From an uncultured Methylococcaceae bacterium (lineage in GTDB: Bacteria; Pseudomonadota; Gammaproteobacteria; Methylococcales; Methylococcaceae), in NCBI GenBank assembly GCA_903910005.1, contig CAIVXW010000040.1:1-41255 (forward strand): DNA of 41,255 nucleotides, written 5' to 3'. Shown one piece after another: positions 4,189-39,357 of the stretch. The position numbers and the translations under genes are program-made. The notes under the pieces are model-generated. The model saw only the letters and a program-made list of their open reading frames with translations. It made no database searches and had not been told where the DNA came from. Position 1 is the stretch's first letter, and every line of letters starts with the position of its first letter.

Positions 4189-4209
4189 CCTGACAATCCA
4201 TTCATAACC

Positions 4210-4410
4210 ATGTCCGATACCGTCTACCACTGTGATCTCTGCCATCTGCCTGTTGAAGTCAACGGCTTTACGATTCAGTCGTCACAGGGCGAAAAACGCT
4301 TTTGCTGCGAAGGATGCAAGGGAATCTACCTCATGCTGCACGGAGACGGTGAGGATAATCAAGCGACCCAACCACCAGACCACACGACTCGCGGGAGAAC
4401 CACTCGATGA
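4210..4410 (+). CDS. Stand-alone metal-binding zinc-ribbon protein of the type normally found at the N-terminus of FixI/CcoI-type ATPases (ATPase-cat_bd-like)
   Basis: YHCDLCHLPV...x17...RFCCEGCKGIYLML fits the CxxC...FCCxGCxxVY pattern of that domain. The stop overlaps the next start (ATGA at 4407-4410). Confidence 0.7.
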   Translation: MSDTVYHCDLCHLPVEVNGFTIQSSQGEKRFCCEGCKGIYLMLHGDGEDNQATQPPDHTTRGRTTR

Positions 4411-4838: not shown

Positions 4839-4854
4839 CCCCCGGCTGGCCAGC

Positions 4855-12574: not shown

Positions 12575-13343
12575 GGCTGCGAAAATCAGTACCACCCAGC
12601 AATTGATGGGTGGTGGTATGAAAAAGCCGGGAGAGACAGCCATCGCGCAGCATGGTTTCCAGCATTCCGGGACCGGCAATGAGGTAAGCCCGGCCATAAC
12701 CCAGCCGTCCCAGGGCGTCCATCAGCAAGCCTCCCTCGACTTCGCGCCGGGTACCGGCAACCAGCACCGGATAGCCTTGATCCTGCCAGTAGGCTACCCG
12801 TTCCGCCCGGGCCTGCTGCCCGGTGGCGATGTAGCAGGCCTGTTCCGGCTGCAGAAACGCACGGGGCGGGGGGAAATCCAGGCTGGCACTGGCAATGACC
12901 ACGGCTGGCTGGTCAGGTAAACCCTGCAGGCTGCGCCAGCCCGGCAACTGTTTGCCCTGTGCATGCAGGCCAACCTGGAGGATGTTACCCAGACGTCCCG
13001 CCGCCAGCTCCTTCAAATAAGAGCCGTGGGTAATCAGGCAGTCAGCCTGGCAGTGCAATTCCAGAAACAGGCGGAAATCGTTTGCGTTGGTGAGTGACCG
13101 GGGCAGATACGGTCTGCCATCGCTGGCGGCCAGCGCGATACGTCCGTCCAGGCTGGACAGGAAATTGGCATAGACGAACGGAGCTTGCGGGGTACCGAAC
13201 CGGTGCAGTCCGAGTTGCAGATAGCAACCCGTCAGCGCGACCGGTTCAGCAGGGTCCGGATACAGACGCAACAGGGTGGATTCCACGCTGCCTGCCCCCG
13301 GATTGGTTTCAGCCGATTTCGCCATGATCCTGATCGTGGCCAT
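12456..13343 (-). CDS. RibD C-terminal-domain (DHFR-like) reductase family protein
   Basis: FVYANFLSSLDGRIA is the typical RibD_C/bifunctional deaminase-reductase motif, and the length and beta-alpha pattern are consistent. The start is 13343 or 13325; either overlaps the lplT 3' end. Confidence 0.62.
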   Translation of the reverse strand: MATIRIMAKSAETNPGAGSVESTLLRLYPDPAEPVALTGCYLQLGLHRFGTPQAPFVYANFLSSLDGRIALAASDGRPYLPRSLTNANDFRLFLELHCQADCLITHGSYLKELAAGRLGNILQVGLHAQGKQLPGWRSLQGLPDQPAVVIASASLDFPPPRAFLQPEQACYIATGQQARAERVAYWQDQGYPVLVAGTRREVEGGLLMDALGRLGYGRAYLIAGPGMLETMLRDGCLSRLFHTTTHQLLGGTDFRSLSPGPEYGRLGHLRLLSLHYDSSSPAGAGQCFAQFEPLK

Positions 13344-18690: not shown

Positions 18691-18852
18691 CGGTAATAAA
18701 ACGGAAAAACCGGCTGAGTGTACCAGTTTGACCGCGCCGGGTCAGCGTCCGGCTTAACGAAACAACGAGGCAACCGTCATGGGCCGTCCGGCAACACCGG
18801 CATACACTATTGAACCCACCGTAATCGGTGGTCGACCTCAGGGGGTGAATCC

Positions 18853-21800
18853 ATGAGTCGGAAAACCCGTAAAACCCGCCGTCAATCCCGTCTGCAATCC
18901 GGAATACCCGCCCAAACCGGGACGGTGTCTGACCGGCTCAACAAGGCACTCGATCTACACCGACAAGGCAATCTGGATGCGGCCTGTGCCCTGTACCATT
19001 CAATCCTGCAACAGGAACCGGAACATTTTGAGGCCTTGCAGTTACTGGGGGTATTGCGAATACGCCAGCAACGTTACACCGAAGCACTCGAATACCTGGA
19101 TCATGCCCTGTGCATTCGGGCGGATGTGATTGCGGTACACAATAACCGGGGCATCGCCTTGCACCGCCTCGGACGTCCGCAGGAATCCCTGGCCAGTTAC
19201 CAGCGGGTGTTGCAGGCGAATCCGGATTACGCTGAAGCCTGGTACAACCAGGGCATTGTCCAGCAGGAAACTGGCCAGTACCCGGAGGCTCTGGCCAGTT
19301 ACGAGCGGGCACTGGCCCTCAAGCCCGATTATTTCGAGGCACATGGCAACCGGGGCAATACCCTCAAGAGCCTGCACCGGCTGGAAGAAGCCCTGGGCAG
19401 TTATCAACGGGCACTGGCCATCCGCCCGGATTACGCGACGGCACTCTACAATTTAAGCGAAACCCTGGGTGACCTGGGACGCTTTGACGAATCGGTTGAA
19501 AACTACCACGCTGCCGTTCAACTGGCCCCGCATCCCGGTCACTACAGTAACTACCTGTTCATGCTGGCCTGTTATGCCGAACGGCAGACACCCGCCGCAT
19601 TGCTTGAGGCGGCCCGGAGTTGGGAGGGCGTTGCCCTGACCGCTGCCGAGCGTGCGGCGGCCCGACTGCGCCGTTTCAGTCCACCGCCGCGACAGGGGCG
19701 TCCACTCAGGGTTGGTATTGTTTCTGCCGAACTGGGGCAACACGCCGTCGCCTACTTCCTCATGTCCTGGCTGGGGCACCTGAATCCGGAACGAATCAGC
19801 CTGTACCTTTACCCCGTCCTCATGCGCAGCGAGGCCGCATCGCAGGTATTTCAATCCCTGGGTGCCCGCTGGCATCCACTGGATCGTCTCGATGATGCAT
19901 CTGCGGCTGAACAAATAAGAAGCGACGGCATCGACATCCTCATGGATGTGAGCGGTCACACCGCACACAACCGGTTGGGCCTGTTCGCCCACAGGGCTGC
20001 CCCGGTTCAGTGTCACTACATCGGCTTTTTTGCTACCACCGGCCTGACTGAAATGGATTACTTTCTGGCCGATGAGGTATTGGTGCCGTCTGCACTGGCG
20101 GATCAGTTCGTCGAAACGGTATGGCGACTACCTCGCCCCTGGCTGGCCTATGCACCGCTGGAAAATGCTCCGGAACCGGGCTGGCAAGCCCCGGATGATG
20201 GCACGGTGTGTCTGGGCAGTTTCAATAACCTGATAAAAGTACGGGAGGATTGCCTGGACTTATGGGCCCGGGTGATGCGAGCCCTGCCGGAAGCCTGGTT
20301 GCTGCTGAAGGATGGCAAGGCCACCGATGCCACCACCCGGCAGCGTATTTGCGACGGTCTTTCGCGGCGGGGCGTGGATGACCGCCGGGTGGCTTTCGCC
20401 GCACGAACCGCCTCCTGGCAGGAACATATGGCCCTGTACGATCAGGTGGACATTGCCCTGGATACCCTGCCGCTCAACAGTGGCACCACTGCCTTTGATG
20501 CCCTGTGGATGGGCGTTCCCCTGATAACCCTGGCGGGAAATACCCTGGCGGGACGGATGGGGGCCGCGATTGTCGCCGGTATGGGTCAGTCGGACTGGAT
20601 TGCCCGGGATTCAGATGACTACGTGGCCAAAGTGGTTGCCCTGGCGCGGGATTTATCGCTGCGAAAGAGGTTGAGACCGGGCCAGCGTGAACGGATGCGT
20701 GCAAGCCCCCTGTGTGACGGCGTGGGTCTGGCCCGAGTGCTGGAGGATGCGTTTGAAACCTGGTTTGACCGGTATGTCGGCTCGACATCCTCCCGTTTAC
20801 CGGTTGAGCATCGCCCGGCGGTCAGTGGCGGTACACCCGACGAAATCCTGCAACAGGCTCTGGATCTGCACCGACGCGGTCAGCTTGCCGAGGCCCAGGC
20901 CTGCTACGACACCCTGCTTGCACAGGATCCCCGGCATTTTGATGCCCTGCAGTTGGCAGGGGCTCTGGCCGCCCAGCAGGAACGCTGGCAACAGGCTCTG
21001 GAGTACGTGGATCACGCCCTGCTGATTCGTCAGGATCAGGCCGAGGTACATTACAACCGGGGCATCATTCTGCAAAACCTGCAACGGCCCGAAGCTGCCC
21101 TCGACAGCTATCGTCAGGCCTTGCGACTGGATCACGGCCATCTCGAAGCCCGCAACAACCTGGGGCTGATGCTGCAACGCCTGAATCGTCTTGATGAAGC
21201 TCTGGTTGCCTACGAAACCGTGCTGAGGATCAAACCCGATTATGCCGAGGTACATTGCAACAAGGGCAATGTACTGAAGGACATGCAGCGACTGGATGAA
21301 GCCCTGTCCTGCTACGAACAGGCGATTCGGTTCAGGCCGGATTACGCCCTGGCTCACTACAACATGGGTAACCTGTTCGCCGCCAGGGAGCGGGCGGATC
21401 AGGCCCTGATTCATTATGAATACGCGCTGCAACTGGGTTTTTGCCGTGCCGAGGTTTATTTCAACCGGGGTAATGCCCTCAAAAAGATGGGCTTGCTGCA
21501 GGAAGCCCTTGCCAGTTACGGGCAGGCGTTACGGCTTGATCCGGATTATGCGGAGGCCCATTACAACAGTGGCAATCTGCTGCGGGAAATCAGTCAGCCG
21601 GATGAAGGACTGGCCCACTACCGGCAGGCCATCAGCACCCGGCCCGATTTTGCCGATGTTTATGTCAATCGTGGCAACGCCTGCAAGGATATGGGACGTC
21701 TGGCCGAGGCGGAAGCCAGTTACCGTCAGGCAGTGTCCCTGTGCCCGCAGCACCCGGGGTATCGCAGCAATCTGCTGTTCCTGCTGGGCTATTGTCCGGA

Positions 21801-23016
21801 ACGGCAATCGGTGCAAGACTATCTGCAGGAGGCTCGAGCCTGGGAGCAAAGCGTGCTGACCGATGCCGAGCGGCAGGCAGTCGCTACACAGCGGTTTGAT
21901 CGCCCCGCCCGTATCGGGCGTCCACTGCGGGTCGGGGTGCTGTCGGCTGAATTGGGTCAACATGCCGTCGCCTATTTTCTCAACACCTGGATGGCTCACC
22001 TGAATCGTGACCGGGTTCAGTTGTTTCTTTATCCCGCCCGACAGATTGACGACCAACATGCCCAAAGCTTCAGGGCCATGGCGGATGCCGTGTGCCCGGT
22101 GGATGATCTGGATGACGCCGCCGCAGTAGCCCGTATCCGCTCGGATGCCCTGGATATCCTGATGGATACCAGCGGCCATACCGGCAGCAACCGGCTGGGT
22201 ATCATTGCCCGCCGGGCCGCCCCCATCCAGTGCCACTACATCGGCTATTTTGCCAGCACTGGCCTCAGCGAAATGGACTACTTTCTGGCCGATGAGGTAC
22301 TAATTCCGTCCGCGCTGGACGACCGGTTCGTGGAGCAGGTCTGGCGATTACCCCGCCCCTGGCTGGCCTATGGGCCGCTGGAACAGGCACCGCAAATTGA
22401 CTGGAAACCGGCTGCCGATGGCCGCATCTGTCTGGGCAGTTTCAATAATCTGGTCAAGGTACGGGAAAATTGCCTGGCGTTGTGGGCCCGGGTGATGCAG
22501 GCTCTGCCGGAAGCCTGGTTGCTGTTGAAGGACGGACGGGCCAGCGATGCCAGTACCCGGCGGCGCGTCACCGAGACACTGCAGCAGTGGGGGGTAACAC
22601 CGGATCGGGTGGTTTTTGCCGCACGCACGGCCGCCTGGCAGGAACACATGATGCTTTACAATCAGGTGGACATTGCCCTGGATACCCTGCCACTCAACAG
22701 TGGCACCACCGCCTTTGATGCCCTGTGGATGGGGGTTCCCCTGATAACCCTGGCAGGAGACCACATGGCCGGACGCATGGGGGCTGCCATCGTCACCGGT
22801 ATGGGACAACCCGACTGGGTTGCCACCACTGCCGACGACTACGTGGCCCGGGTAGTCGCCCTGGCGCGGGATATACCGACCCGAACCGCCCTGAGGGCCA
22901 ACCAGCGCGAACGGATGCGGGTCAGTCCGCTCTGCGATGGAGCCTACCTGGCCCGCACACTGGAAGACACGTTCGAGACCTGGTTTGATCGATGGAGCCT
23001 GTCCGGTACCGCCTGA
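18853..23016 (+). CDS. Tandem double-module TPR + GT41 (SPINDLY/O-GlcNAc-transferase-like) glycosyltransferase, 1387 aa
   Basis: TPR repeats (e.g. AEAWYNQGIVQQETGQYPEALASYERALALKPDY) are followed by a GT41-type catalytic region. Its motifs are RVGIVSAELGQHAVAYF, DILMDVSGHTAHNRL, CLGSFNNLIKV and DIALDTLPLNSGTTAFDALWMGVPLITLAG. The whole TPR+GT arrangement then repeats (RVGVLSAELGQHAVAYF ... DIALDTLPLNSGTTAFDALWMGVPLITLAG). AGGGGG RBS sits 8 nt upstream. Confidence 0.85.
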   Translation: MSRKTRKTRRQSRLQSGIPAQTGTVSDRLNKALDLHRQGNLDAACALYHSILQQEPEHFEALQLLGVLRIRQQRYTEALEYLDHALCIRADVIAVHNNRGIALHRLGRPQESLASYQRVLQANPDYAEAWYNQGIVQQETGQYPEALASYERALALKPDYFEAHGNRGNTLKSLHRLEEALGSYQRALAIRPDYATALYNLSETLGDLGRFDESVENYHAAVQLAPHPGHYSNYLFMLACYAERQTPAALLEAARSWEGVALTAAERAAARLRRFSPPPRQGRPLRVGIVSAELGQHAVAYFLMSWLGHLNPERISLYLYPVLMRSEAASQVFQSLGARWHPLDRLDDASAAEQIRSDGIDILMDVSGHTAHNRLGLFAHRAAPVQCHYIGFFATTGLTEMDYFLADEVLVPSALADQFVETVWRLPRPWLAYAPLENAPEPGWQAPDDGTVCLGSFNNLIKVREDCLDLWARVMRALPEAWLLLKDGKATDATTRQRICDGLSRRGVDDRRVAFAARTASWQEHMALYDQVDIALDTLPLNSGTTAFDALWMGVPLITLAGNTLAGRMGAAIVAGMGQSDWIARDSDDYVAKVVALARDLSLRKRLRPGQRERMRASPLCDGVGLARVLEDAFETWFDRYVGSTSSRLPVEHRPAVSGGTPDEILQQALDLHRRGQLAEAQACYDTLLAQDPRHFDALQLAGALAAQQERWQQALEYVDHALLIRQDQAEVHYNRGIILQNLQRPEAALDSYRQALRLDHGHLEARNNLGLMLQRLNRLDEALVAYETVLRIKPDYAEVHCNKGNVLKDMQRLDEALSCYEQAIRFRPDYALAHYNMGNLFAARERADQALIHYEYALQLGFCRAEVYFNRGNALKKMGLLQEALASYGQALRLDPDYAEAHYNSGNLLREISQPDEGLAHYRQAISTRPDFADVYVNRGNACKDMGRLAEAEASYRQAVSLCPQHPGYRSNLLFLLGYCPERQSVQDYLQEARAWEQSVLTDAERQAVATQRFDRPARIGRPLRVGVLSAELGQHAVAYFLNTWMAHLNRDRVQLFLYPARQIDDQHAQSFRAMADAVCPVDDLDDAAAVARIRSDALDILMDTSGHTGSNRLGIIARRAAPIQCHYIGYFASTGLSEMDYFLADEVLIPSALDDRFVEQVWRLPRPWLAYGPLEQAPQIDWKPAADGRICLGSFNNLVKVRENCLALWARVMQALPEAWLLLKDGRASDASTRRRVTETLQQWGVTPDRVVFAARTAAWQEHMMLYNQVDIALDTLPLNSGTTAFDALWMGVPLITLAGDHMAGRMGAAIVTGMGQPDWVATTADDYVARVVALARDIPTRTALRANQRERMRVSPLCDGAYLARTLEDTFETWFDRWSLSGTA
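19531..20775 (+). repeat. Internal duplication, copy 1: GT41-like catalytic module (aa 227-641)
   Basis: It aligns without net indel to 21751..22995 at a constant offset of 2220 nt. 20441..20534 versus 22661..22754 shows 3 mismatches in 94 nt. Confidence 0.85.
21751..22995 (+). repeat. Internal duplication, copy 2: GT41-like catalytic module (aa 967-1381)
   Basis: See copy 1. Both copies are 1245 nt, start at HPG(H/Y) and end at ETWFDR(Y/W). Confidence 0.85.
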
Positions 23017-23086
23017 GTCAATTCACCGATGCCGCAATGGTTGCGTCTGCAGCAATTTTTAACATAACCCAAGATAGCAGCAACGA

Positions 23087-24061
23087 ATGTCAATGAACGA
23101 TACTGCATATCTACAGGCACGAACCCTGTTTCAGGCCGGGCATTACCCGGCGGCAACCCTGATTTGTCAGCAGTATCCTGCTGACTTCAATCATTTGTAT
23201 TTGCTGGGGCTGATTCATGCCGAAACCTGCCAATACGACCAGGCCCTTGCCTGTCTGGAAGCCGCCCGGGTGCTTGATTCAAACCACCTCGGTCTGAAGG
23301 CGGACAGGGAGCGCGTCCTGAATGCGGTCAACCGGCAAAAACTGATGCTGGCTCTGGGGCTGCATCAGCACCATCGAGCGGTAGCTGCTGCATCGGTCTA
23401 TGATGAAATCCTGCAAACCGACCCGCAGCATTTTGATGCCCTGCAACTGCGGGGGGCTCTGGCCCTGCAGCGGGGCGACTATCGACAGGCTCTGAACGAT
23501 CTGAACCGGGCTGTCTCCATCCGTACCGATTATGCCGACGCCCACAGCAACCGGGGGATTGCCCTGCAGGAACTGGGACGTTTTGAAGAAGCCCTGGCAA
23601 GCTACGACCGTGCCCTGAGCCTGACCGCCGCCAATCCCCGGATTCACAACAACCGCGGTAACACCCTGAAGGAACTCAACCGTCTCGACGAGGCACTGGT
23701 GAGTTACGGTCATGCCCTGGCACTTGACCCGAATTATGCCGATGCCTGGAGCAACCAGGGCAGTACCCTGAACGCCCTGCAGCGCAGCGATGAGGCACTG
23801 CTCTGTTATGACCGGGCCCTGAGTCTTGATCCAACCCTGGCAGAAGCCTGGTTTAACCGGGGCAACATCCTCAGGGAGCGAAATCAACTGGAAGAGGCTC
23901 TGGCCTGTTATGACCGGGCTTTGACTCTCAAGCCGACATTTGCCCGGGTTTACAACAATCGGGGCATCGTTTTACAGGATTTGGGCTATCTGGGTGAAGC
24001 CCTGGCCAGTTATGAACGGGCTCTTGAACTGGATATGGCGGCTTCGGAGAAGTCGGCATGA
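23087..24061 (+). CDS. Stand-alone TPR-repeat protein (no catalytic domain)
   Basis: There are about 7 TPR units, and the segment DPQHFDALQLRGALALQRGDYRQALNDLNRAVSIRTDYADAHSNRGIALQELGRFEEALASYDRAL is closely related to both TPR arrays of the upstream GT. The stop overlaps the next start (ATGA at 24058-24061). Confidence 0.85.
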   Translation: MSMNDTAYLQARTLFQAGHYPAATLICQQYPADFNHLYLLGLIHAETCQYDQALACLEAARVLDSNHLGLKADRERVLNAVNRQKLMLALGLHQHHRAVAAASVYDEILQTDPQHFDALQLRGALALQRGDYRQALNDLNRAVSIRTDYADAHSNRGIALQELGRFEEALASYDRALSLTAANPRIHNNRGNTLKELNRLDEALVSYGHALALDPNYADAWSNQGSTLNALQRSDEALLCYDRALSLDPTLAEAWFNRGNILRERNQLEEALACYDRALTLKPTFARVYNNRGIVLQDLGYLGEALASYERALELDMAASEKSA

Positions 24062-25155
24062 TTCACACCGGCATACACCCCACCGCCGTCATTGATAACC
24101 AGGGCATTTGTGAAATGCCCGATACCACCATCATGGAAGCCGGGGCCATCATTTCGATCGGCTCACGCGGACGAATTCAGCTTGGTAACCGCAACATCCT
24201 CTACCCGCAAGTCAGCATTCGTATCGACCAGGGCTGGATGCTGACCGGCGATGAGGTTTCATTCGGCTCCGGCTGTCAGATTTACGAACCCCGGGCCGGT
24301 CTGGAGATTGGCCATCATTGCCTGATTGCCGGCAATGTCAGCATCTGTGGCGTCAAGCACGGGCGCATGGATCCGACCATCCCCATGCGGCAGCAGCCTG
24401 CGGAAAATCTGCCGATTCACATTGGCGATAATGTCTGGATCGGGATGGGAGTCATCATTCAGGCCGGTGTCCGTATTGGTTCAGGGGCGGTGATCGGGGC
24501 GGGTTCGGTGGTGACCCGGGATATACCGGAATGGGCCATTGCCTGGGGGACGCCCTGCCGGGTGCAGCGCATGCGCGGCAATGGCCACTTCATGGCGCAT
24601 CTGGAAGACGGCCCCCTGCGCCTGCATCTGGGGTGCGGTCCCCGTTTCATTCCGGGTTTTTTGCACGTGGATGCCCAGCCTCATCCCCATGTCGATCTGG
24701 TGGCGGATGTCGCCCGGCTGGAGATGATTCCCGACGCCAGTGTTGACCTGATCTATGCCTCTCATGTACTGGAACATTTTGGACGCTGGGAATTTCGCGG
24801 CGTCCTGACCGAATGGCGGCGTATTCTCAAACCCGGCGGCGTGCTGCGACTGGCCGTACCGGATTTTGCCGCCTGTGCCAAACTGTATTACGAGAACGGT
24901 CTGGCTGATGGTTTGAATGGCCTGATTGGCCTGGTTTGCGGCGGGCAGCGGGATGAGCATGATTTTCACCGCATGATTTTCGACGAACCCTTTCTCACCC
25001 ATGAGTTGGTGGGGCTTGGCTTTCGTCAGGTGCGCCGTTGGGACTGGCGAGACACCGAACACGCTGACATCGACGATTATTCCCAGTCATACCTGCCCCA
25101 TCTGGACAAGAACCGGGGAACCCTGATGAGCCTGAATCTGGAGGCACGCCGATGA
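24058..25155 (+). CDS. Fusion protein: N-terminal left-handed-beta-helix (hexapeptide) acyl/acetyltransferase + C-terminal class I SAM-dependent methyltransferase
   Basis: Hexapeptide-repeat region: IHIGDNVWIGMGVIIQAGVRIGSGAVIGAGSVVTRDIP. Methyltransferase region: LRLHLGCGPRFIPGFLHVD (motif I), DLIYASHVLEHF and ILKPGGVLRLAVPD. Confidence 0.75.
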   Translation: MIHTGIHPTAVIDNQGICEMPDTTIMEAGAIISIGSRGRIQLGNRNILYPQVSIRIDQGWMLTGDEVSFGSGCQIYEPRAGLEIGHHCLIAGNVSICGVKHGRMDPTIPMRQQPAENLPIHIGDNVWIGMGVIIQAGVRIGSGAVIGAGSVVTRDIPEWAIAWGTPCRVQRMRGNGHFMAHLEDGPLRLHLGCGPRFIPGFLHVDAQPHPHVDLVADVARLEMIPDASVDLIYASHVLEHFGRWEFRGVLTEWRRILKPGGVLRLAVPDFAACAKLYYENGLADGLNGLIGLVCGGQRDEHDFHRMIFDEPFLTHELVGLGFRQVRRWDWRDTEHADIDDYSQSYLPHLDKNRGTLMSLNLEARR

Positions 25156-25883
25156 GTGACGTCTGGGTTCCTTCGGATCGGCAGTATATGATTGACGATT
25201 TATGCCGCACCATCACCCGGGTCGCAGCCAACGAGGGCTGGTTTCAGCAATCCTGGCAGGGCGTGGATGTCTGGCAGTTGCCGGAAGATCTGGTACGGTT
25301 ACAGGGGGTGGTGCATACGATACGACCCCGCTGGATCATTGAAACCGGCACCAAATTCGGTGGCTCGGCGATTTTTTTTGCCTCACTGCTGGCGTTGAAT
25401 GGCGAGACGGCAGGCGGCGTTATCACGGTAGACCTTGACCTGAAACCGCAGGCTCTGGATTGTTTCAGGCATCATCCCCTGGGTACGCGGATTAAGGCCG
25501 CCCTGGCCGGTGATGCGGCAGCCCCGGATACCCTGGCACGTTGTGCCAGCCTGCTGGCCAGCGATCCCGGTTGCGTCATGGTGTTTCTGGATGACGACCA
25601 TAATGCCGATCATGTCGAGCGGGAATTACAGGCCTACGCCCCCCTGGTCACCCCTGGCAGTTATTTGATTGTGGCGGATACCAGTTTTGCCGAGCTGGCG
25701 GGTACGCCGGTCGGCCGGTCAACCCCCAAGTATCCGGATGTGGCACGCTCCAACCCAAAAGTCGCGCTGGAACGGTTTCTGGTTTCCCACGGCCACCAGT
25801 TCGAGCGGGTGGTGCCGCCCTGTCCCCACGGCCCCGGCAACTTTAAGGATGGTTTTTTGAGAAGGCGAACCGATGTATCCTGA
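25152..25883 (+). CDS. CmcI-family (cephalosporin-hydroxylase / rhamnosyl O-methyltransferase-like) methyltransferase
   Basis: FQQSWQGVDVWQLPEDLVRLQGVVHTIRPRWIIETGTKFGGSAIFFA and VFLDDDHNADHV fit the CmcI family (PF04989). The ATG overlaps the upstream stop (ATGA). Confidence 0.72.
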   Translation: MSDVWVPSDRQYMIDDLCRTITRVAANEGWFQQSWQGVDVWQLPEDLVRLQGVVHTIRPRWIIETGTKFGGSAIFFASLLALNGETAGGVITVDLDLKPQALDCFRHHPLGTRIKAALAGDAAAPDTLARCASLLASDPGCVMVFLDDDHNADHVERELQAYAPLVTPGSYLIVADTSFAELAGTPVGRSTPKYPDVARSNPKVALERFLVSHGHQFERVVPPCPHGPGNFKDGFLRRRTDVS

Positions 25884-26631
25884 AATGACGCATAAAACAC
25901 TGCGGATGCCGGACGGTTGCCGTCTGGGTTATGGCATCCGTGCAAACGGAGCGGATACGACCCTGATGCTGATCCACGGGGCTTTGTGTGATGCTACCTC
26001 GCTGCAGCATATCGCGCTGGCCGATGATGGTCAGCTTGACGTGCTGTTGCCGGATTTGCGCGGTCACGGCCAATCGACGGACGGAACGACCGAATGGACG
26101 CTGGAATTACTGGCCCGGGACATGCTCGCCCTCGTTGAAGCTGAGCAGGTTGGACGCTTGATTGTTGCGGGTGAGTCTTTTGGTGCCCTGGTAGCGGCCC
26201 GGATGGCGACCCTGAGACCTGACAGGATCAGCCTGCTGATTTGCTCTGAACCCCCCTTGTCGCCTGCCCGCCTTGCCCCCGTACGTCAGGCCATACTCTC
26301 TGCCATGCCATTCAATGCGTCGGCCCGGGGGCTGGCAGCCATTATGGGATATGCGCCGAGTAGCGATGCACACCAAAACGAGACCACGTTCCATGCCGTA
26401 CTGACCGGAACCACCGTGCCGTTAATTTTGCTGCACGGAACCGGTGGCAGCGGCAGCTTCGCCACTGTCGTGGATCAGGCCGACAGGATTCGGCTCTCCG
26501 GAGTGCCGTCCATCACGCTGCTGAAGGTCGAAGCAGCCGATCATCTGGTGTTGCGTGCCGTGGGTAGCAGCCTGGTGAGGGCACTGCTGGCAGAGCAGCG
26601 GGCTTCGTCGCCCATTCCGGGAGTGCGCTAA
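25873..26631 (+). CDS. Alpha/beta-fold hydrolase (possible esterase/deacylase)
   Basis: LMLIHGALCD (oxyanion-region HG), the nucleophile elbow GESFGA, and a late ADH that may be the catalytic His region. It overlaps the upstream gene by 11 nt. Confidence 0.68.
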   Translation: MYPEMTHKTLRMPDGCRLGYGIRANGADTTLMLIHGALCDATSLQHIALADDGQLDVLLPDLRGHGQSTDGTTEWTLELLARDMLALVEAEQVGRLIVAGESFGALVAARMATLRPDRISLLICSEPPLSPARLAPVRQAILSAMPFNASARGLAAIMGYAPSSDAHQNETTFHAVLTGTTVPLILLHGTGGSGSFATVVDQADRIRLSGVPSITLLKVEAADHLVLRAVGSSLVRALLAEQRASSPIPGVR

Positions 26632-26655
26632 AGTTTGGCCGGACAATTCCGATAC
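26629..26655 (+). promoter_or_regulatory. Sigma-28 (FliA) class III promoter for the flagellin gene
   Basis: TAAAGTTT (26629-26636), then 11 nt, then TCCGATAC (26648-26655). The consensus is TAAAGTTT-N11-GCCGATAA, so the -35 matches 8/8 and the -10 matches 6/8 with the CCGATA core intact. The leader to ATG 26753 is about 90 nt, and AGGAG lies upstream of the ATG. Confidence 0.75.
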
Positions 26656-26752
26656 CTTGATCCGCATAGATTAAGCGGGTGAGCCGGAACAGGGTTCCCC
26701 CGATAATCCTGAATTCTTATACTCCCATCCCCAATTCAACAGGAGCACTACC

Positions 26753-28978
26753 ATGCCTTCCATAGTCAATACCAACATGCTGGCACTGACCACCCAGCGT
26801 CAGATGAACAAGGCCCAGGCCACTCAGCAAAATGCCATGACCCGTCTTTCCTCAGGGCTCCGTATCAACGGTGCCAAGGACGATGCAGCCGGCATGTCGA
26901 TCGCCAACCGCATGTCGTCACAGATTACCGGTCTCAATCAGGCTACCCGCAATGCCAACGATGGCATTTCGCTGACCCAAACGGCCGAAGGCGGACTGAG
27001 CGAGATCAATACCAACCTGCAGCGTATGCGCGAACTGGCCGTGCAGTCCGCCAACGCTTCCAATACCGCCTCTGACCGGGTCGCCCTGCAACAGGAAACC
27101 AAGCAGCTGCTGCAGGAAATTCAGCGGGTCGCGTCCACCACCGATTTCAACGGCATCAAGTTGCTGGACGGCAGTTTCCAGAACAAGGCGTTCCAGATTG
27201 GAGCCAATGCCGGTCAAACCACCAATATCAGTGTTGCCAGTGCGGCCATCAAGGATCTGGGTTCTTCCGCCAATTCGGCCATAACCAGTCGGGGTATGTC
27301 CACCAATAAATCGAATGCTGCCCTGAATGGGGCTGCCGGTACCAATGCGCCCGCCATGGCTTTGGGTGACGTCATAGTGAATGGTGTGAGCGTAGGGGCT
27401 TCCACGGCCGACAATGACACTACCTCTTTCTCACTGGGTGCGGCCAGTGCCATTGCCAAGGCAGCCGCTTTCAACAAGGTTTCCGCGCAAACCGGTGTCA
27501 CCGCCACGGTCAATGCCAATGAAGTGCAGGGGAAGGAGATGACTGCGGGTGGTTCCGGTAGTGGCAAAATTGTGATAAACGGGGTGGCGACTGATGACAT
27601 TACCCTCCAGGATGTTACCAGCGATTCGACCGGCATTGCCAACCGCACCAACATCATGAATGCCATCAATTCGATGACAGGACGAACCGGGGTAACGGCG
27701 GTCGACAGTGGCGATAACAAAACCGGTATTAAACTGGTAGCCGCCGACGGTCGCAACATTTCACTGGGAGTCACCGATGCAAGTCTCACTACGGCCAATA
27801 CTGGCTTGAATCTCAGCGGAACCGGAGTACTTGCCAGCACTAACGCGACTGATCTCGCAAATGCCAGTGATGCCGCTTACGGGGTCTTTACCGCATCAGT
27901 AACCCTGTCTTCCACCAAGGAAATGAAAATTGAGCAGGGAACCGGTGATGTCGGCAATGCCGGGCTGACCACAGGCACCTACCAGGCCCAGAAGGCCATG
28001 GTTATGACCAAGCAGATTGGTAATGGAGACGGCACGCTGAATGCGACCGAGGGCTTTACCTACGGTGATTTCAAGATCAACGGCATTTTGATTGGAACCT
28101 CGCTTGCTGCGGATGACAAATACACCCTGCCAGGTACCGCCAACCCTGAGGTCAGTGCCATTGCCAAGGCGGCAGCGGTCAACAAGTTGTCCAGCCTGAC
28201 CGGCGTCTCGGCAACGGCCAATACCACCCTGGTCAAGGGGGCGACCATGGACAACAACTCGCAAAGTGGCCAGATCGTCATCAACGGCATGGAAACATCC
28301 GTGATTACCACCACTTCCAACACCACTGCTGCCAACCAGGCCGAAACCCGGCAGCGGGTGGTCGCTGCCATCAATGCCATCAGCGGTAAAACCGGGGTCA
28401 AGGCCATTGACACCAATGATGCTGCTTCGGGGATTCGGCTTGAGGCTGCCGATGGTCGCAACATCACGGTTGATCTTGGTGCAGGAACCACGAATCCTGG
28501 TGCTGGTACCGGAGCCAGTTTTGGTCTTCGCGAAGGCACTTACTCCGGTTCCATTTCGTTGTCCTCGACCAAGGCTTTCAGTATAGAACGCGGAACCACC
28601 AACAGGGATACCAATGCAACCCTCGGTCTGGCAGTTGGTACCTACGGGGCCGGTCGAACCGGTCAATCGCTGGAGTCGATCGATATTTCCAGCCAGGAAG
28701 GAGCCGTGGCCGCCATTGAGGCCATAGACAACGCGATCAACGCAGTGGATGAAAGCCGGGTGAATATGGGATCCTACCAAAACCGCTTTACCTCGACGGT
28801 TTCGGCCCTGCAGTCCACGTCAGCCAATCTGACCGCAGCCCGCAGCCGGATTCAGGATGCCGACTTTGCGGCAGAATCGGCTGAAATGAGCAAGGCCGGT
28901 ATTCTGCAGCAGGCAGGTACCGCCATGCTGGCACAGGCCAATGCGTCCAGTCAGGGGGTATTGTCACTGCTCAGATAA
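26753..28978 (+). CDS. fliC: Flagellin (741 aa, enlarged variable region with four Flagellin_IN motifs)
   Basis: Conserved N-terminal D0/D1: VNTNMLALTTQRQMNK...LSSGLRINGAKDDAAGMSIANRM...ATRNANDGISLTQTAEGGL. Conserved C-terminus: GSYQNRFTSTVSALQSTSANLTAARSRIQDADFAAESAEMSKAGILQQAGTAMLAQANASSQGVLSLLR. Confidence 0.96.
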   Translation: MPSIVNTNMLALTTQRQMNKAQATQQNAMTRLSSGLRINGAKDDAAGMSIANRMSSQITGLNQATRNANDGISLTQTAEGGLSEINTNLQRMRELAVQSANASNTASDRVALQQETKQLLQEIQRVASTTDFNGIKLLDGSFQNKAFQIGANAGQTTNISVASAAIKDLGSSANSAITSRGMSTNKSNAALNGAAGTNAPAMALGDVIVNGVSVGASTADNDTTSFSLGAASAIAKAAAFNKVSAQTGVTATVNANEVQGKEMTAGGSGSGKIVINGVATDDITLQDVTSDSTGIANRTNIMNAINSMTGRTGVTAVDSGDNKTGIKLVAADGRNISLGVTDASLTTANTGLNLSGTGVLASTNATDLANASDAAYGVFTASVTLSSTKEMKIEQGTGDVGNAGLTTGTYQAQKAMVMTKQIGNGDGTLNATEGFTYGDFKINGILIGTSLAADDKYTLPGTANPEVSAIAKAAAVNKLSSLTGVSATANTTLVKGATMDNNSQSGQIVINGMETSVITTTSNTTAANQAETRQRVVAAINAISGKTGVKAIDTNDAASGIRLEAADGRNITVDLGAGTTNPGAGTGASFGLREGTYSGSISLSSTKAFSIERGTTNRDTNATLGLAVGTYGAGRTGQSLESIDISSQEGAVAAIEAIDNAINAVDESRVNMGSYQNRFTSTVSALQSTSANLTAARSRIQDADFAAESAEMSKAGILQQAGTAMLAQANASSQGVLSLLR
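27362..27988 (+). repeat. Flagellin surface module A (aa 204-412): two xINGxxx 'Flagellin hook IN' motifs
   Basis: LGDVIVNGVSVG...SAIAKAAAFNKVSAQTGVTAT...KIVINGVATD...NIMNAINSMTGRTGVTAVD...GIKLVAADGRNISLG...VTLSSTKEMKIEQGT...GLTTGTYQA. Confidence 0.8.
28061..28651 (+). repeat. Flagellin surface module B (aa 437-633): a diverged tandem copy of module A
   Basis: YGDFKINGILIG...SAIAKAAAVNKLSSLTGVSAT...QIVINGMETS...RVVAAINAISGKTGVKAID...GIRLEAADGRNITVD...ISLSSTKAFSIERGT...GLAVGTYGA. Confidence 0.8.
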
Positions 28979-28995: not shown

Positions 28996-29096
28996 GAAAC
29001 AAGGAACGACACAAACAGAAAAAACGAAAGAAGAAAAGGATGAAAAAAATGGAAAAGATGAAAAGGATGAAAAGGATCAGAAGAATGGAGTGAAGC
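28996..29096 (+). repeat. Purine/A-rich low-GC tract with six tandem degenerate 9-bp units (29039-29092) and six A(A/T)GGA motifs
   Basis: The 9-bp units are gatgaaaaa aatggaaaa gatgaaaag gatgaaaag gatcagaag aatggagtg. GGA motifs are at 29003, 29038, 29051, 29065, 29074 and 29087. The tract contains very few pyrimidines, in sharp contrast to the flanking GC-rich DNA. Confidence 0.85.
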
Positions 29097-29404
29097 CACC
29101 TGGACTGGCGGTCGGTTCTTATGGTTCTGGTCACATCCGCGAATCGCCTGAATCGGTTTCGGTTGATGTTTACGCCCGGCAGGCGGGCGTTGGGGTGGTC
29201 AGGGCCATGGATGACCTAATCAATTCGGTGGATAAGAATCTGGAAAACAGGGGTTCAAACCGTCTTGCTTCGGCTGTCAATCTGAGTGCTTTTGCGGCAG
29301 AATCGGCTGAAATGGGCAAGGCCGATATTCTGCAGCGGGCAGATGCCGCCATGCTGGCGCAGGCCAATGCGTCCACCCGGAGGGTATTGTCACTGCTCAG
29401 ATAA
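29090..29404 (+). pseudogene. Decayed 3' remnant of a second flagellin gene
   Basis: GLAVGSYGSG...AMDDLINSVDKNLENRGSNR...FAAESAEMGKADILQRADAAMLAQANASTRRVLSLLR aligns to the fliC C-terminus. The segment around YQNRFTSTVSALQSTSANLTAARSRIQDAD is missing or decayed. The last 114 nt (29291-29404) match 28865-28978 at 104/114 positions, and similarity continues about 20 nt past the stop. There is no N-terminal domain. Confidence 0.7.
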
Positions 29405-29581
29405 ATAGATCCCTTGTACTGAGACAGGTCTGGCCCTGGACAGGGATGATCCAGGGCGCACGGGTGTCTTGTCGTCCAGTTCAGCCTGGGTCGGGATGTC
29501 TGGTTTTTTTATGTTTGCATGGTTTCAGGGTCTGATACCGTGCATGTACCTTAGGCATACGGATAATTTTTGGAGTCGGCC

Positions 29582-29983
29582 ATGAAAATAAGTGATTTGG
29601 TGTCACCTGCCTTTGTGCAAAAAAGCGGGATTGCACGTGAATTGTCCGAATCCGCCCGTTCGTTGTCCCCAACGACCGTTGCCGATACGGTTGTGGTGGC
29701 TTCGTGGCAAATCCTGCCTGTCAAGGAACCGGATGGTATCCAGGCGACATCAGAAAAAAGGGAACAGCAACTGGATGAGGCCATTGCAAAGGCAAACCGG
29801 TTTTTGCAGGATGATAACCGTGCCCTGCAGTTCGTCAAGGACAAGGATTCAGATCGAATCGTCATTGTAATCAAGGACACGAAGACAAATGAGGTAATTC
29901 AACAGATTCCCTCGGAAGCCATGCTGAGATTATCCAGACAACTTGAGCAGTTGCAGGGTATTCTGTTTGAAGAAAAAGTGTAA
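29582..29983 (+). CDS. flaG: Flagellar protein FlaG
   Basis: The C-terminal region LQFVKDKDSDRIVIVIKDTKTNEVIQQIPSEAMLRL is typical of the FlaG family (PF03646), and the position between fliC and fliD fits. I prefer ATG 29582, which has GGAG 6 nt upstream, over the TTG at 29570. Confidence 0.85.
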   Translation: MKISDLVSPAFVQKSGIARELSESARSLSPTTVADTVVVASWQILPVKEPDGIQATSEKREQQLDEAIAKANRFLQDDNRALQFVKDKDSDRIVIVIKDTKTNEVIQQIPSEAMLRLSRQLEQLQGILFEEKV

Positions 29984-30021: not shown

Positions 30022-32055
30022 ATGGTTTCAATTACCTCAAGCGGGCTGGGTTCCGGCATGGATATCAACGGCCTGGTCACCAAACTGGTGGAAGCTGAAA
30101 AAGCCCCGGCCGTCACCCGGCTTGATAAAGCCGAGGCGAAAATACAGGCCAGGATTTCCGCCTACGGTTCATTCAAAAGTGCCCTGTCTGCGGTCAGGGA
30201 CAGTTTGGCGGTGTTGGGTAAGGCTCAGACCTTTCAGAAAGTCAGCGCAACTTCCAGTGACAACACGGTACTGACGGCTACTGCAGGTATCAATGCCGAT
30301 GCCGGCAAGTACCGAATGGAGGTGCAACGACTGGCCCAAAACCATGCCTTGTCCAGTAAAAGCCATGATTCTGCCAGCGCGGTGGTGGGTTCAGGAACCC
30401 TGACCATCAAATTCGGCACAACCCAGTACGACGCGGGTACTGATACTTATGCGGGGTTCACCCAGAATCCTGACAAGGGTACCCTGACCCTCACCATTGA
30501 CGATTCAAACAACACCCTGACCGGGATTCGTGATGCCATCAACAAATCGGCAGCGGGTGTCACGGCGTCCATCGTTTATAATGGCAGCGGCCATCAACTG
30601 GTGTTGAACAGCACTGATAGCGGTGCCAAAAACAGCCTGCAAATAGCGGTAACAGACACTTCTGATGGCAACAATACCGATAACCTGGGCTTGTCGGCAC
30701 TGGCGTTCAACCAGACGGCGACCCACCTGACCCAGAATCAGGTAGCTCAGGATGCCCAGTTGTCGATTAACGGACTGGCTGTGAACAGCAGCACCAATAC
30801 CATCACGGACGCCCTGAAGGGCGTTACGCTTAACTTGCAGCAGGCCCAGGTGGGTAAATTCGTTTCACTGGATGTCAGTTATGCGGATACCGACGTCAAA
30901 ACTGCCGTCAGTACTTTTGTGGACAAATTCAATGAACTGGCCCGGAACGTCAGCACCGCAGCCACCTATGATCCCCAAACCCGAACCGCCGGCATTTTGC
31001 TGGGAGAGTCTACCGTCATCAATACCATGTCGCGCCTCAGGGCTGAACTGGGTAAAACTGTGACGGGGTTGACCGGGACGACCCGCAGTCTGGCCGACAT
31101 CGGAATCACCACTCAGAAAGACGGTACCCTGAGTTTCGACAGTGCCAAACTGAGTAAGGCGTATGCCACAGATCGTACCGCTGTTGCCGCCTTGTTTGCC
31201 GTAACCGGGCGACCGAGCGACAGTTCAAACCTGTATGTCAGCAGCACACGGGACACGCTGGCAGGCCAGTATGGCGTAGAGGTCACCCAGTCAGCCAGCC
31301 AGGGATTGTTGAGTGGTTCAAGCGTAGTCGGCGGTGTTTTTCCCCTGGCGGTGAGTGAACCCAACAACAGCCTGAAAATCAAGGTGAACGGTGTGCAGTC
31401 CGGCAGCATCACCTTGACGCCGACAAGTTATGCGTCGGGGAGCGAACTGGCTGCTGAATTACAGACCCGCATCAATGGCGACAGCACACTCAGATTGAGT
31501 GGAACTGCCGTCAAGGTAAGTTTCAGTAACGACCAGTTCCAGATTCAGTCCAATTCATATGGCGCATCGTCCCAGGTCGAAATCACCGGGATCAATGCCC
31601 AGTTGTCTGCTTCCCTGGGGTTGGCAACCGGTGTCGGTGTTGCCGGTCATAATGTGACAGGGACGATTAACGGCGAAGTGGCCGAGGGGGACGGTCAGGT
31701 TCTGACCGCCATTAGCGGTTCTGCCAAGGGGTTGAGCCTGCTGATGGAGGGGTCGCGAACCGGTACACGCGGAACCGTCGACTTTACCCGTGGCATCATG
31801 GAACAAATAAACAGCGTCTTGTCCGCTGCACTGGACAACAACGGTATGCTGGCGGTTCGTACCAAGGGTTTAAGCACATCCATCACCGACATTACCCGCC
31901 AGCGTACCGATTTATCAACCCGCATGGAAACCTACCAGCGGCAGTTGTACATCCGATTCAACGCAATGGATTCCATGATGGGCAAGTTACAGGCGACCAG
32001 TACCTACCTGACCCAGCAAATCACTGCCCTTAATGCCGCCAACAAGCAAAATTAG
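30022..32055 (+). CDS. fliD: Flagellar filament capping protein FliD
   Basis: N-terminus ITSSGLGSGMDINGLVTKLVEAEKAP...RISAYGSFKSAL and C-terminus RFNAMDSMMGKLQATSTYLTQQI. Confidence 0.93.
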   Translation: MVSITSSGLGSGMDINGLVTKLVEAEKAPAVTRLDKAEAKIQARISAYGSFKSALSAVRDSLAVLGKAQTFQKVSATSSDNTVLTATAGINADAGKYRMEVQRLAQNHALSSKSHDSASAVVGSGTLTIKFGTTQYDAGTDTYAGFTQNPDKGTLTLTIDDSNNTLTGIRDAINKSAAGVTASIVYNGSGHQLVLNSTDSGAKNSLQIAVTDTSDGNNTDNLGLSALAFNQTATHLTQNQVAQDAQLSINGLAVNSSTNTITDALKGVTLNLQQAQVGKFVSLDVSYADTDVKTAVSTFVDKFNELARNVSTAATYDPQTRTAGILLGESTVINTMSRLRAELGKTVTGLTGTTRSLADIGITTQKDGTLSFDSAKLSKAYATDRTAVAALFAVTGRPSDSSNLYVSSTRDTLAGQYGVEVTQSASQGLLSGSSVVGGVFPLAVSEPNNSLKIKVNGVQSGSITLTPTSYASGSELAAELQTRINGDSTLRLSGTAVKVSFSNDQFQIQSNSYGASSQVEITGINAQLSASLGLATGVGVAGHNVTGTINGEVAEGDGQVLTAISGSAKGLSLLMEGSRTGTRGTVDFTRGIMEQINSVLSAALDNNGMLAVRTKGLSTSITDITRQRTDLSTRMETYQRQLYIRFNAMDSMMGKLQATSTYLTQQITALNAANKQN

Positions 32056-32075: not shown

Positions 32076-32477
32076 ATGAGATCCGCCAGCCATGCCCTGA
32101 ACGAATACAGACAAACCTACGTCGAAGCCGGCGGTGTGTATGCCGATCCGCATAGCCTCATTTCCATGTTGTTTGGCGGGTTGCAGGAGCGCATTGCCAT
32201 AGCCAGGGGGGCTTTGCAGCGGAAAGATCACGCCGTCAAGGGCAAGGCCGTCAGCCAGTCCATCGAGATACTGGCGTACCTGCAATCCTGTCTGAATGTA
32301 GAGCAGGGCGGAGAGATTGCCAAAAATCTGGACGGCCTTTATGCCTACATGAGCCAGCAACTGTTCATGGCGGGTGCCAACAATGATGACGCCCTGTTTG
32401 AGGAAGTGAAGTATTTGCTGGCCGAGATTCAAAGCGGTTGGGACGGCATACGCAGCCAGGTCGTCGGCAAAAGTTGA
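32076..32477 (+). CDS. fliS: Flagellin-specific export chaperone FliS
   Basis: YRQTYVEAGGVYADPHSLISMLFGGL, GGEIAKNLDGLYAYMSQQL and EIQSGWDGI. Confidence 0.92.
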   Translation: MRSASHALNEYRQTYVEAGGVYADPHSLISMLFGGLQERIAIARGALQRKDHAVKGKAVSQSIEILAYLQSCLNVEQGGEIAKNLDGLYAYMSQQLFMAGANNDDALFEEVKYLLAEIQSGWDGIRSQVVGKS

Positions 32478-35146: not shown

Positions 35147-35944
35147 GTGGCAATCGGGCGTCTGCTACTCGATATCGGCAATACCCGGATCAAGTGGGCC
35201 ATTACGGGTGGCGATGTGCCGGTTCCGGGTGAGCCGATTCCTACCCATCCGCACAGCCTGGACGCCCTGTTGACGTCAGCGTGGCGAACGCTGGATCGAC
35301 CCGGGCAGGTATGGATGGCCTGTGTAGCCGGTTCCGGGGTGGCAGTGGCAGTCGAGTCATGGCTTCGGCAACAATGGGATTGTCCGCTGTACCATGCCCG
35401 CACTACCCCGGAAGCCCTGGGGGTAGTCAATGCCTACACTGAACCGGCCCGCCTGGGGGTGGATCGCTGGTTGTCGCTGATTGCAGCCCGTCGGTTGTGC
35501 CTGCAACCGGTCTGTGTGGCGGGTTGTGGTACCGCATTGACCCTCGACACCCTCGACGGTCTGGGGCGGCATCAGGGCGGTATCATCAGTCCGGGGCTGA
35601 GGCTCATGCACCAGACCCTGACTCGGGGGGCCGAACAACTCCGCCATATTCCCCAACCTGCTGACATGACCGTACCGCTGATGCCGCTTGAGGGTTGCCT
35701 GGCGACCAATACGCAAGAAGCGATGATGGCAGGCTGTGTTGAGGCTTGTCTGGGCCTGATTGAACGGGTTTACACCCGATTCGCCCGTTGTCATGACGGC
35801 AACGGCGAGGGGAGTCGCCTGATTCTGACCGGCGGAGACGCCGGGTTGCTGGCAAGGCATCTGACCCTACCCTGCCAGGTGGAACCTGATCTGGTGTTGA
35901 AAGGGCTGCACTGGCTGGCTGAATCGGTTGCTGACAGTTGCTGA
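35147..35944 (+). CDS. coaX: Type III pantothenate kinase CoaX
   Basis: LLLDIGNTRIKWA (phosphate-1 motif), GVDRW and CGTALTLDT. GTG start. Confidence 0.85.
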   Translation: MAIGRLLLDIGNTRIKWAITGGDVPVPGEPIPTHPHSLDALLTSAWRTLDRPGQVWMACVAGSGVAVAVESWLRQQWDCPLYHARTTPEALGVVNAYTEPARLGVDRWLSLIAARRLCLQPVCVAGCGTALTLDTLDGLGRHQGGIISPGLRLMHQTLTRGAEQLRHIPQPADMTVPLMPLEGCLATNTQEAMMAGCVEACLGLIERVYTRFARCHDGNGEGSRLILTGGDAGLLARHLTLPCQVEPDLVLKGLHWLAESVADSC

Positions 35945-35960
35945 ATGGCGAGAGTGTCAC

Positions 35961-38913: not shown

Positions 38914-38928
38914 GAGGTCACCCGAACC

Positions 38929-39330: not shown

Positions 39331-39357
39331 GCTGATACCCCTCGCTGGAGTGCCTCA

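Follow-up and report, generated by a model that had tools for sequence, protein, structure and literature searches.

What does an operon encoding a two-module glycosyltransferase and four smaller proteins do immediately upstream of a flagellin gene? The question is raised by a 41,255-nucleotide (nt) stretch of DNA from an uncultured Methylococcaceae bacterium (assembly GCA_903910005.1, contig CAIVXW010000040.1, positions 1 to 41,255), referred to in its entirety as the window. The answer proposed here is that the operon and the flagellin gene, fliC, probably form a functional island of the GT41 (OGT/SPINDLY-like) type, in which flagellin is glycosylated and the sugar tailored. Flagellin is the most likely client of the cassette and, because the operon lies directly 5′ of fliC and recurs beside flagellin genes in other bacteria, it most likely sugar-coats this protein. 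A preliminary description of the locus had placed six co-directional open reading frames (ORFs) upstream of the flagellin. An ORF check recovered all six on the plus strand with the same coordinates, but five of them lie 5′ of fliC and the sixth is fliC itself. The domains assigned to the six proteins were confirmed in each case by Pfam. The operon, fliC and the flagellar genes that follow are laid out as below, with amino acids abbreviated to aa and tetratricopeptide repeat to TPR.

18853..23016, plus strand: double TPR-GT41 glycosyltransferase, 1387 aa (Pfam, PDB and fold matches)
23087..24061, plus strand: TPR-only protein, 324 aa (only TPR families matched in Pfam)
24058..25155, plus strand: fusion of a left-handed beta-helix (LbH) acetyltransferase and an S-adenosylmethionine (SAM) methyltransferase, 365 aa (Pfam Hexapep at the N-terminus, Methyltransf_11 at the C-terminus)
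25152..25883, plus strand: methyltransferase of the CmcI / rhamnosyl O-methyltransferase family, 243 aa (Pfam RMNT_CmcI, E = 2.1e-41)
25873..26631, plus strand: alpha/beta-fold serine hydrolase or acyltransferase, 252 aa (Pfam Abhydrolase_1/6)
26629..26655, plus strand: sigma-28-type fliC promoter, TAAAGTTT-N11-TCCGATAC (direct reading and pattern count)
26753..28978, plus strand: flagellin (fliC), 741 aa (Pfam Flagellin_N 5e-44, Flagellin_C 3e-25)
29570-29983, plus strand: flaG (Pfam FlaG)
30022-32055, plus strand: fliD (Pfam FliD_N/FliD_C)
32076-32477, plus strand: fliS (Pfam FliS)

The 1387-aa protein had been described as carrying two GT41 modules, and profile hidden Markov model searches upheld that placement. 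Glyco_transf_41 (PF13844) was matched at E = 2.6e-86 (290.5 bits against a cut-off of 25) in four stretches distributed over both modules, alongside many TPR families, and the two halves of the protein are 52% identical over their full length, the second being longer through extra TPRs. In module 1, six TPRs (residues 25-228, nt 18925-19536) precede the catalytic domain, which lies at about nt 19537-20787; in module 2, nine TPRs (residues 662-967, nt 20836-21753) precede the one at nt 21754-23013. The TPRs of both modules keep an exact 34-residue register and most have Asn at position 6, the residue that forms the peptide-binding asparagine ladder in OGT. The metazoan intervening domain is absent. 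When the whole protein was compared with the PDB, matches were found to Arabidopsis SPINDLY (SPY, 5e-106) and human OGT (hOGT, 3e-102) and also to the Thermobaculum and Xanthomonas OGTs; for a single catalytic domain the best sequence match was again SPINDLY (1.1e-64). A confident AlphaFold model of module 2 (predicted local distance difference test, pLDDT, of 89) consists of helical repeats followed by two Rossmann-like lobes, and Foldseek placed SPY first among its matches (E = 2.6e-42, TM-score up to 0.81), followed by OGTs (1e-34).

The active-site residues are kept in both modules. His297 and His1037 are the equivalents of hOGT H498, and Lys462 and Lys1202 those of hOGT K842 and SPY K665, lying in the sequence GSFNNL[IV]K, which is near-identical to the SPY motif GSFNNLxK. 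The phosphate-binding Thr-Thr pair (hOGT T921/T922) corresponds to Thr545-546 and Thr1285-1286, within DTLPLNSGTT. In SPY, K665 is essential (PMC9715652). Because the Pfam, PDB and fold matches are joined by these conserved residues, GT41 membership is secure for both modules, and the active sites of both are intact as judged from the residues. Moreover, the two modules are both retained in a relative with catalytic domains 61-70% identical, with slight module-to-module orthology. Chained TPR-GT41 modules (two or three, in proteins of 1,200-2,400 aa) are very common among homologues. The protein search scored 8000 candidates, 2655 of them with E<=1e-20, and 95 of the 120 best-scoring matches are at least 1,200 aa long, a ranking by score that favours long proteins. 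No description of a multi-catalytic GT41 architecture was found in the literature searched.

The donor sugar cannot be called, since the donor-pocket residue is Leu in both modules (Leu541 and Leu1281) and matches neither the Cys of OGT (Cys917 in hOGT) nor the Tyr of SPY (Tyr744); in HMW1C this position is Phe. The pocket residue has been proposed to govern pocket size and donor choice in GT41 (PMC9715652). The position of SPY Ser496 is occupied by Ala. A housekeeping UDP-sugar, named as the donor in the preliminary description, is therefore not established, given this Leu and given that the closest solved relative, SPINDLY, uses GDP-fucose.

The 3′ end of the operon is 121 nt from the start of fliC, on the same strand. 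The promoter of fliC overlaps the stop codon of the hydrolase gene and is the single sigma-28-type match in the window, where chance alone would give 0.08. The flagellin is indeed to be regarded as sigma-28-driven. Linkage beyond the window was examined by using the GT41 alignment as the query against one genome per species, which gave 597 relatives, and by inspecting the best 80 loci. Late flagellar genes were found within 10 kb in 13 of these best 80 of 597 loci, in Gallionellaceae, Hydrogenophilales, unclassified Betaproteobacteria, Methylobacter, Rhabdochromatium, Acidobacteriaceae and Thermodesulfovibrionales. A random 22-kb stretch represents <1% of a 3-5 Mb genome, giving a rough chance estimate of about 1%. 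The observed 13/80 is far above this and GT41 loci are thus enriched beside flagellar genes.

Flagellar adjacency of GT41 was seen in loci L002/L003, L086, L088, L090, L091, L011, L005, L017, L071 and L085, among others, in a variety of arrangements. In L002/L003, where the GT41 protein is 59% identical to that of the window, the order is GT41x2, TPR-only, LbH-methyltransferase, CmcI, hydrolase, a 730-aa fliC, flaG, fliD and fliS. The whole cassette is also found 5′ of fliC-flaG-fliD-fliS in the metagenomic contigs L088 and L091, and its downstream part is kept in L090, a contig that begins within the TPR-only gene and has no CmcI match. The cassette of L086 is divergent from a 588-aa fliC, and its single-module GT41 carries the hydrolase as a C-terminal fusion. 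In Gallionellaceae (L011), two separate GT41 genes, CmcI, LbH/methyltransferase and hydrolase come after fliK-flhB'-ycgR. Rhabdochromatium marinum DSM 5261 (L017, 584-10694) has four tandem single-module TPR-GT41 genes that share the strand of a 421-aa fliC and lie directly 5′ of it. Their products (709, 751, 735 and 696 aa) are 50-53% identical to the window catalytic domain, each with the catalytic Lys, and have Phe, Phe, Tyr and Phe respectively as pocket residues. Double-module GT41 proteins occur beside fliC in Dechloromonas denitrificans, Methylobacter (L071) and L085. In the first of these (L005, 7971-18540) the gene for a 242-aa flagellin that lacks a variable domain diverges from an FkbM methyltransferase gene and two multi-module GT41 genes (1287 and 1559 aa), whilst the Methylobacter island additionally carries DegT, WbqC, an acyltransferase, FkbM, methyltransferases and dioxygenases, and that of L085 a strong CmcI homologue. 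As the linkage outlasts inversion, fission, fusion and wide taxonomic distance, flagellin is the likely substrate in these loci.

The flagellin of the window has conserved N- and C-terminal helical domains around a 512-residue centre (residues 143-654). This surface region had been called very rich in Ser, Thr, Ala and Gly, and the four residues do make up 51% of it, but its 23% Ser+Thr is not known to be unusual for the variable regions of flagellins. The centre is an internal tandem duplication (27439-28464) with a period of about 705-708 nt and copies 72-76% identical at the DNA level. An enlarged, Ser/Thr-rich centre, the feature that the preliminary description had pointed out, is neither required nor what draws the system, because flagellins encoded beside GT41 genes can be as short as about 240 aa (Dechloromonas, Gallionellaceae) and as long as 741 aa. 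Likewise, the designation as an IN-domain flagellin was dropped, Flagellin_IN being only a sub-threshold match in Pfam (E = 0.32).

Several further observations concern the flagellin gene and its surroundings. One protein in the 90%-identity cluster of the flagellin is 464 aa long (P0146), a hint either of variation in length or of truncation of the contig. Downstream, the fliC stop codon is directly followed by a low-complexity tract rich in A (29015-29090; GAAAAG/GATGAAAAG-like) and then by a degenerate copy of the 3′ end of fliC that has lost internal sequence. The ORF of this copy (29090-29404, Flagellin_C 3e-05) is about 90% identical to fliC over its last ~120 nt, stop codon included, and resembles either the relic of a second flagellin gene or a scar left by recombination. 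The gap between fliC and flaG in L002 is just 183 nt.

The four smaller proteins of the operon were then considered in terms of what they could contribute. The 324-aa TPR-only protein aligns in register with residues 654-896 of the GT41 protein, i.e. the module-2 array, at 46% identity over 243 aa. This alignment makes it a paralogue of that array which lacks a catalytic domain, and a candidate adaptor or specificity factor. ORFs at the equivalent position in related loci encode 318 aa (L002) and 309 aa (L087), the latter 55% identical by tblastn. In the fusion protein, the LbH half occupies about nt 24058-24597 and the class I SAM methyltransferase half about nt 24613-25152. The LbH domain groups with WcaF/WbbJ and the maltose and galactoside O-acetyltransferases; the WcaF, galactoside and maltose families were matched in NCBIfam, and maltose O-acetyltransferase in the PDB at 1.6e-19. 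The methyltransferase half is 92% identical to its counterpart in L002 (15479-16021), against 72% for the LbH domain, 73% for CmcI, 62% for the hydrolase, 70% for the GT41 catalytic domain and 62% for the flagellin centre in the same comparison. These identities suggest that constraint on the methyltransferase domain of the fusion is unusually strong.

The 243-aa CmcI protein also matched the NCBIfam rhamnosyl O-methyltransferase, weakly and under the curated cut-off (1.7e-21), and its gene accompanies those for GT41 and the LbH-methyltransferase in many loci. The hydrolase has a GESFG nucleophile motif (Ser102) and a His223 that is conserved in 6/7 of the homologues aligned. The position of His223 is Gln in the GT41-hydrolase fusion of L086 (2737-5994) and His in the six free-standing homologues; the fused domain may therefore be inactive or act differently. 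Accessory domains fused to GT41 were encountered repeatedly, as GT41-hydrolase (P0118), GT41-CmcI (P0018) and several GT41-Methyltransf_11 proteins. Since the accessory enzymes belong to families of sugar O-acetyltransferases and sugar O-methyltransferases, they fit glycan tailoring, and to this extent the methylation, acylation and de-esterification foreseen in the preliminary description are in keeping with the families found.

The ends of genes 2-5 overlap by 4, 4 and 11 nt (24058/24061, 25152/25155 and 25873/25883) and these genes therefore appear to be translationally coupled. Upstream of the operon are a divergent psd and then purH, fis and dusB (Pfam). The GC content of the operon (0.57-0.62) is the same as that of the remainder of the window and thus gives no signal of recent horizontal transfer, a possibility that we rejected on this basis. 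To cover the wider neighbourhood, a Pfam domain scan was applied to the window ORFs of at least 150 aa between 352 and 39926, a range that takes in most of the window. Families of nucleotide-sugar, Maf or nonulosonic-acid (Pse/Leg) enzymes were absent from the ORFs scanned, in agreement with what had been reported earlier, and so were nucleotidyltransferases, dehydratases and aminotransferases. The sole epimerase-fold protein of the window (352-1236, with DUF1731) is 17 kb from the island. Sugar-biosynthesis genes are common within flagellin islands, though not obligatory, and this island has none. The system can be called self-contained, as had been proposed, only at the scale of the 41-kb window.

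Based on the families and the gene order, we propose the following scheme. In the cytoplasm and before export, the TPR superhelices of the two-module enzyme would bind flagellin and offer its Ser/Thr residues to the two GT-B active sites, and the TPR-only paralogue may add to this binding. Binding of flagellin by TPRs would, by analogy, parallel FlmG and Maf-1. Each active site would draw on a nucleotide sugar whose synthesis is encoded elsewhere in the genome and would transfer a monosaccharide from it, with the two modules probably differing in the sites they serve or the step they perform, acting at different sites or in sequence. The transferred sugar would then be O-acetylated by the LbH domain and O-methylated by the CmcI-family enzyme and the fused class I methyltransferase, whilst the alpha/beta hydrolase may carry out ester hydrolysis or acyl transfer on the sugar, all roles suggested by family membership. 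Finally, the modified flagellin, made from its own sigma-28 promoter, would be exported and polymerised. The trio of GT41, LbH-methyltransferase and CmcI genes would have been recruited to the flagellin locus in this lineage.

A number of points weigh against this interpretation. Firstly, 67 of the best 80 GT41 loci have no flagellar gene nearby. Secondly, a scan for the LbH-methyltransferase fusion returned 33 metagenomic loci, and in most of those having upstream sequence the fusion is directly 3′ of a GT41 gene, often with CmcI too. Among these, the long contigs L095, L096, L100, L103, L106 and L108, which carry GT41 and the LbH-methyltransferase with or without CmcI, contain no flagellar genes detectable by tblastn. 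Longest-ORF annotation of L095, L096 and L100 included several Arg-rich antisense artefacts of high-GC DNA without Pfam matches, and for this reason the neighbours in these contigs are described by tblastn alone. Thirdly, the GT41 operon has no identified promoter, and the only sigma-28 match in the window belongs to fliC. A sigma-70 scan gave fewer matches than shuffled sequence and none in the 18691-18852 spacer; a sigma-54 -24/-12 element considered in the spacer 5′ of the operon was discarded on reading because of its wrong spacing. Fourthly, the solved bacterial GT41 homologues XcOGT and TtOGT show little or no activity in vitro (PMC9715652), and the source organism is an uncultured metagenome-assembled genome. 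Lastly, sequence cannot decide between tailoring of the sugar in situ, the order of events given in the preliminary description, and modification of the donor.

The last point leads to the alternative that survives best, namely that the accessory enzymes act earlier and turn a common nucleotide sugar into a modified donor, which GT41 then transfers to flagellin. The trio accompanies GT41 whatever the neighbourhood, as would be expected if it defined the donor chemistry, and the GT41-linked flagellin locus of Methylobacter (L071) has true nucleotide-sugar enzymes in DegT, WbqC, the acyltransferase and FkbM. Moreover, methylation of the P. aeruginosa b-type glycan appears early, on the precursor (PMC11833859). 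We nevertheless consider this route unlikely. The nucleotidyltransferase, dehydratase and aminotransferase that such a pathway would call for are missing from the window ORFs scanned, and in L086 the hydrolase is physically fused to GT41 itself. The characterised maltose and galactoside O-acetyltransferases, WcaF/WbbJ and rhamnosyl O-methyltransferase, i.e. characterised members of the very families matched here, are known to act on sugars that are free or already in glycosidic linkage.

A second alternative is that the operon encodes a general system for protein glycosylation in the cytoplasm, as OGT/SPY do, or has a different client in the envelope or among secreted proteins, and that its position beside fliC is an accident of gene order. 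The sheer number of TPR-GT41 proteins (2655 of the 8000 candidates above and 597 genome loci), mostly not linked to flagella, is in keeping with such a view, as are the non-flagellar occurrences of the trio and the want of a recognisable flagellar promoter for the operon. However, adjacency to flagellar genes persists whether the cassette is on the same strand, divergent or 3′ of fliK-ycgR, through fusion and fission and across distant taxa, and its frequency among the best 80 loci is far above the chance estimate. An accident of gene order thus seems distinctly improbable. What the six long contigs do indicate, lacking detectable flagellar genes, is that the GT41/LbH-methyltransferase module has other clients elsewhere. 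Because the trio is also found away from flagellar genes it is a general module rather than a flagellin-specific one, and therefore a portable glycosylation and tailoring module whose target is set by context; its attachment to fliC is confined to the clade closest to the window. Of the earlier proposal that the island acts on flagellin, the part concerning the substrate is strengthened by the recurrent linkage, whereas the notion of a cassette specific to flagellin had to be given up.

It is very improbable that the methyltransferases modify flagellin side chains directly and independently of any sugar (e.g. lysine, as with Salmonella FliB), with GT41 mainly a regulator or chaperone like the bifunctional GmaR: flagellin does contain 26 Lys, 21 of them in the central region, and the fusion's methyltransferase domain stands at 92% identity to L002 against 59-73% for its neighbours, but membership of the CmcI family indicates O-methylation of a sugar or small molecule, Pfam gave no FliB-like family for the six proteins, both GT41 active sites are intact, and the methyltransferase is fused to a sugar O-acetyltransferase domain.

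We next compared the island, read as a GT41-type flagellin glycosylation and tailoring system, with those already known. The preliminary description had stated that the gene combination corresponds to no characterised system, which is too strong. Genome analysis has predicted GT41 proteins (COG3914, SPINDLY-family), mostly fused to methyltransferase domains, in the flagellin glycosylation islands of Enterobacteriaceae (De Maayer & Cowan 2016, PMC4875605), and the GT41-type flagellin island is therefore not new as a kind. These islands share with the window a GT41 gene beside the flagellin gene together with methyltransferase and maltose-family O-acetyltransferase functions. However, the enterobacterial GT41 is itself usually fused to a methyltransferase, whereas the window has a tandem [TPR-GT41]x2 protein, a separate TPR-only paralogue, the LbH-methyltransferase, CmcI and the hydrolase. 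The hosts differ too, since the nearest GT41 loci suggest a loose and probably betaproteobacterial affinity for that of the window. The second precedent is the cyanobacterial TPR-GT41 Ogt (Synpcc7942_0051), encoded next to pilA and required for glycosylation of the PilA pilin, an enzyme that cannot do without its catalytic Lys; in 38% of cyanobacterial genomes ogt and a pilin gene are neighbours (PMC9306852). It too is a bacterial cytoplasmic TPR-GT41 whose gene adjoins that of a filament subunit, but its client is a type IV pilin, it has a single module and no tailoring enzymes have been described with it. Arabidopsis SPINDLY (PDB 7y4i, 8dtf-8dti) resembles the window enzyme in having a TPR superhelix and a GT-B domain with no intervening domain, and differs from it as a eukaryotic nucleocytoplasmic regulator with a single catalytic module and GDP-fucose as its donor, i.e. 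a protein O-fucosyltransferase.

Other flagellin systems are further removed. The soluble flagellin O-glycosyltransferases FlmG of Caulobacter and Maf-1 of Shewanella use a TPR domain to bind flagellin and a separate catalytic domain to transfer the sugar, and cis-encoded specificity factors such as GlfM exist in these systems (PMC7591256; bioRxiv 10.1101/2023.12.03.569772). FlmG shares with the window enzyme an N-terminal TPR and a C-terminal GT-B domain, a resemblance of design only. Both FlmG and Maf-1 transfer pseudaminic or legionaminic acid and need nonulosonic-acid genes, of which the window ORFs scanned contain none, and for catalysis they have FlmG-type GT-B or Maf domains, for which no assignment to GT41 has been described. 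The P. aeruginosa PA1088-PA1091 and C. difficile CD0240-CD0244 islands are, like that of the window, compact and adjacent to fliC, with a decorated core sugar and a methyltransferase, but they use a GT2 enzyme (FgtA) and a phospho-linked N-methylated threonine, and none of those families is present in the window island (PMC11833859). Glycos_transf_2, the catalytic domain of the GT2-type flagellin transferases FgtA, GmaR and CD0240, had no Pfam match in any of the six proteins. The idea that FgtA might be a TPR-GT41 was ruled out, as it is a GT2 enzyme (PMC11833859). In the literature searched, the characterised flagellin transferases are Maf, FlmG or GT2 enzymes. Searches for a GT41 flagellin transferase with experimental characterisation yielded none, and returned only the bioinformatic report of 2016 and the work on the cyanobacterial pilin. 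What distinguishes the island described here is the tandem double-catalytic GT41, the TPR-only paralogue, the fixed set of LbH-methyltransferase, CmcI and hydrolase, and the lack of sugar-biosynthesis genes within it.

Elsewhere in the window, a DUF6513 protein with a pterin-binding domain (11081-12574) adjoins a RibD_C-like reductase (12456-13343, minus strand). From their domains, the genes at 11081-13343 may belong to pterin or methanopterin-type cofactor metabolism, which could hint at physiology. ORFs at 2718-4211 (minus strand, 497 aa), 4232-4798 (plus), 4795-5421 (plus), 35928-36668 (plus) and 38829-39926 (minus) had no Pfam or NCBIfam match, and the fourth of these precedes a dynamin-like GTPase gene (36658-38322).

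Sugars on flagellin influence how filaments assemble, how well cells move and how hosts and phages recognise them. Bacterial OGT/SPINDLY homologues of the GT41 family are abundant and most are without known substrates. A GT41 operon beside its probable substrate therefore offers a direct way of finding out which sugar is donated, what rules govern the acceptor and why catalytic modules occur in tandem, and Rhabdochromatium marinum DSM 5261, as a cultured organism with a related arrangement, provides an experimental handle. A compact toolkit that glycosylates and then methylates or acetylates would also be added to those available for protein glycoengineering. More broadly, we tentatively suggest, as a possibility rather than an expectation, that the trio represents a widespread bacterial cytoplasmic protein O-glycosylation system in which GT41, often as 2-4 chained modules, adds a small sugar that is O-methylated and O-acetylated on the protein, with the TPR arrays programming the choice of client, here flagellin. 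If that were true, the flagellin versions would provide the first cis-encoded natural substrate of bacterial GT41 enzymes outside the cyanobacterial pilins, and the role of multi-module GT41 proteins would be revealed.

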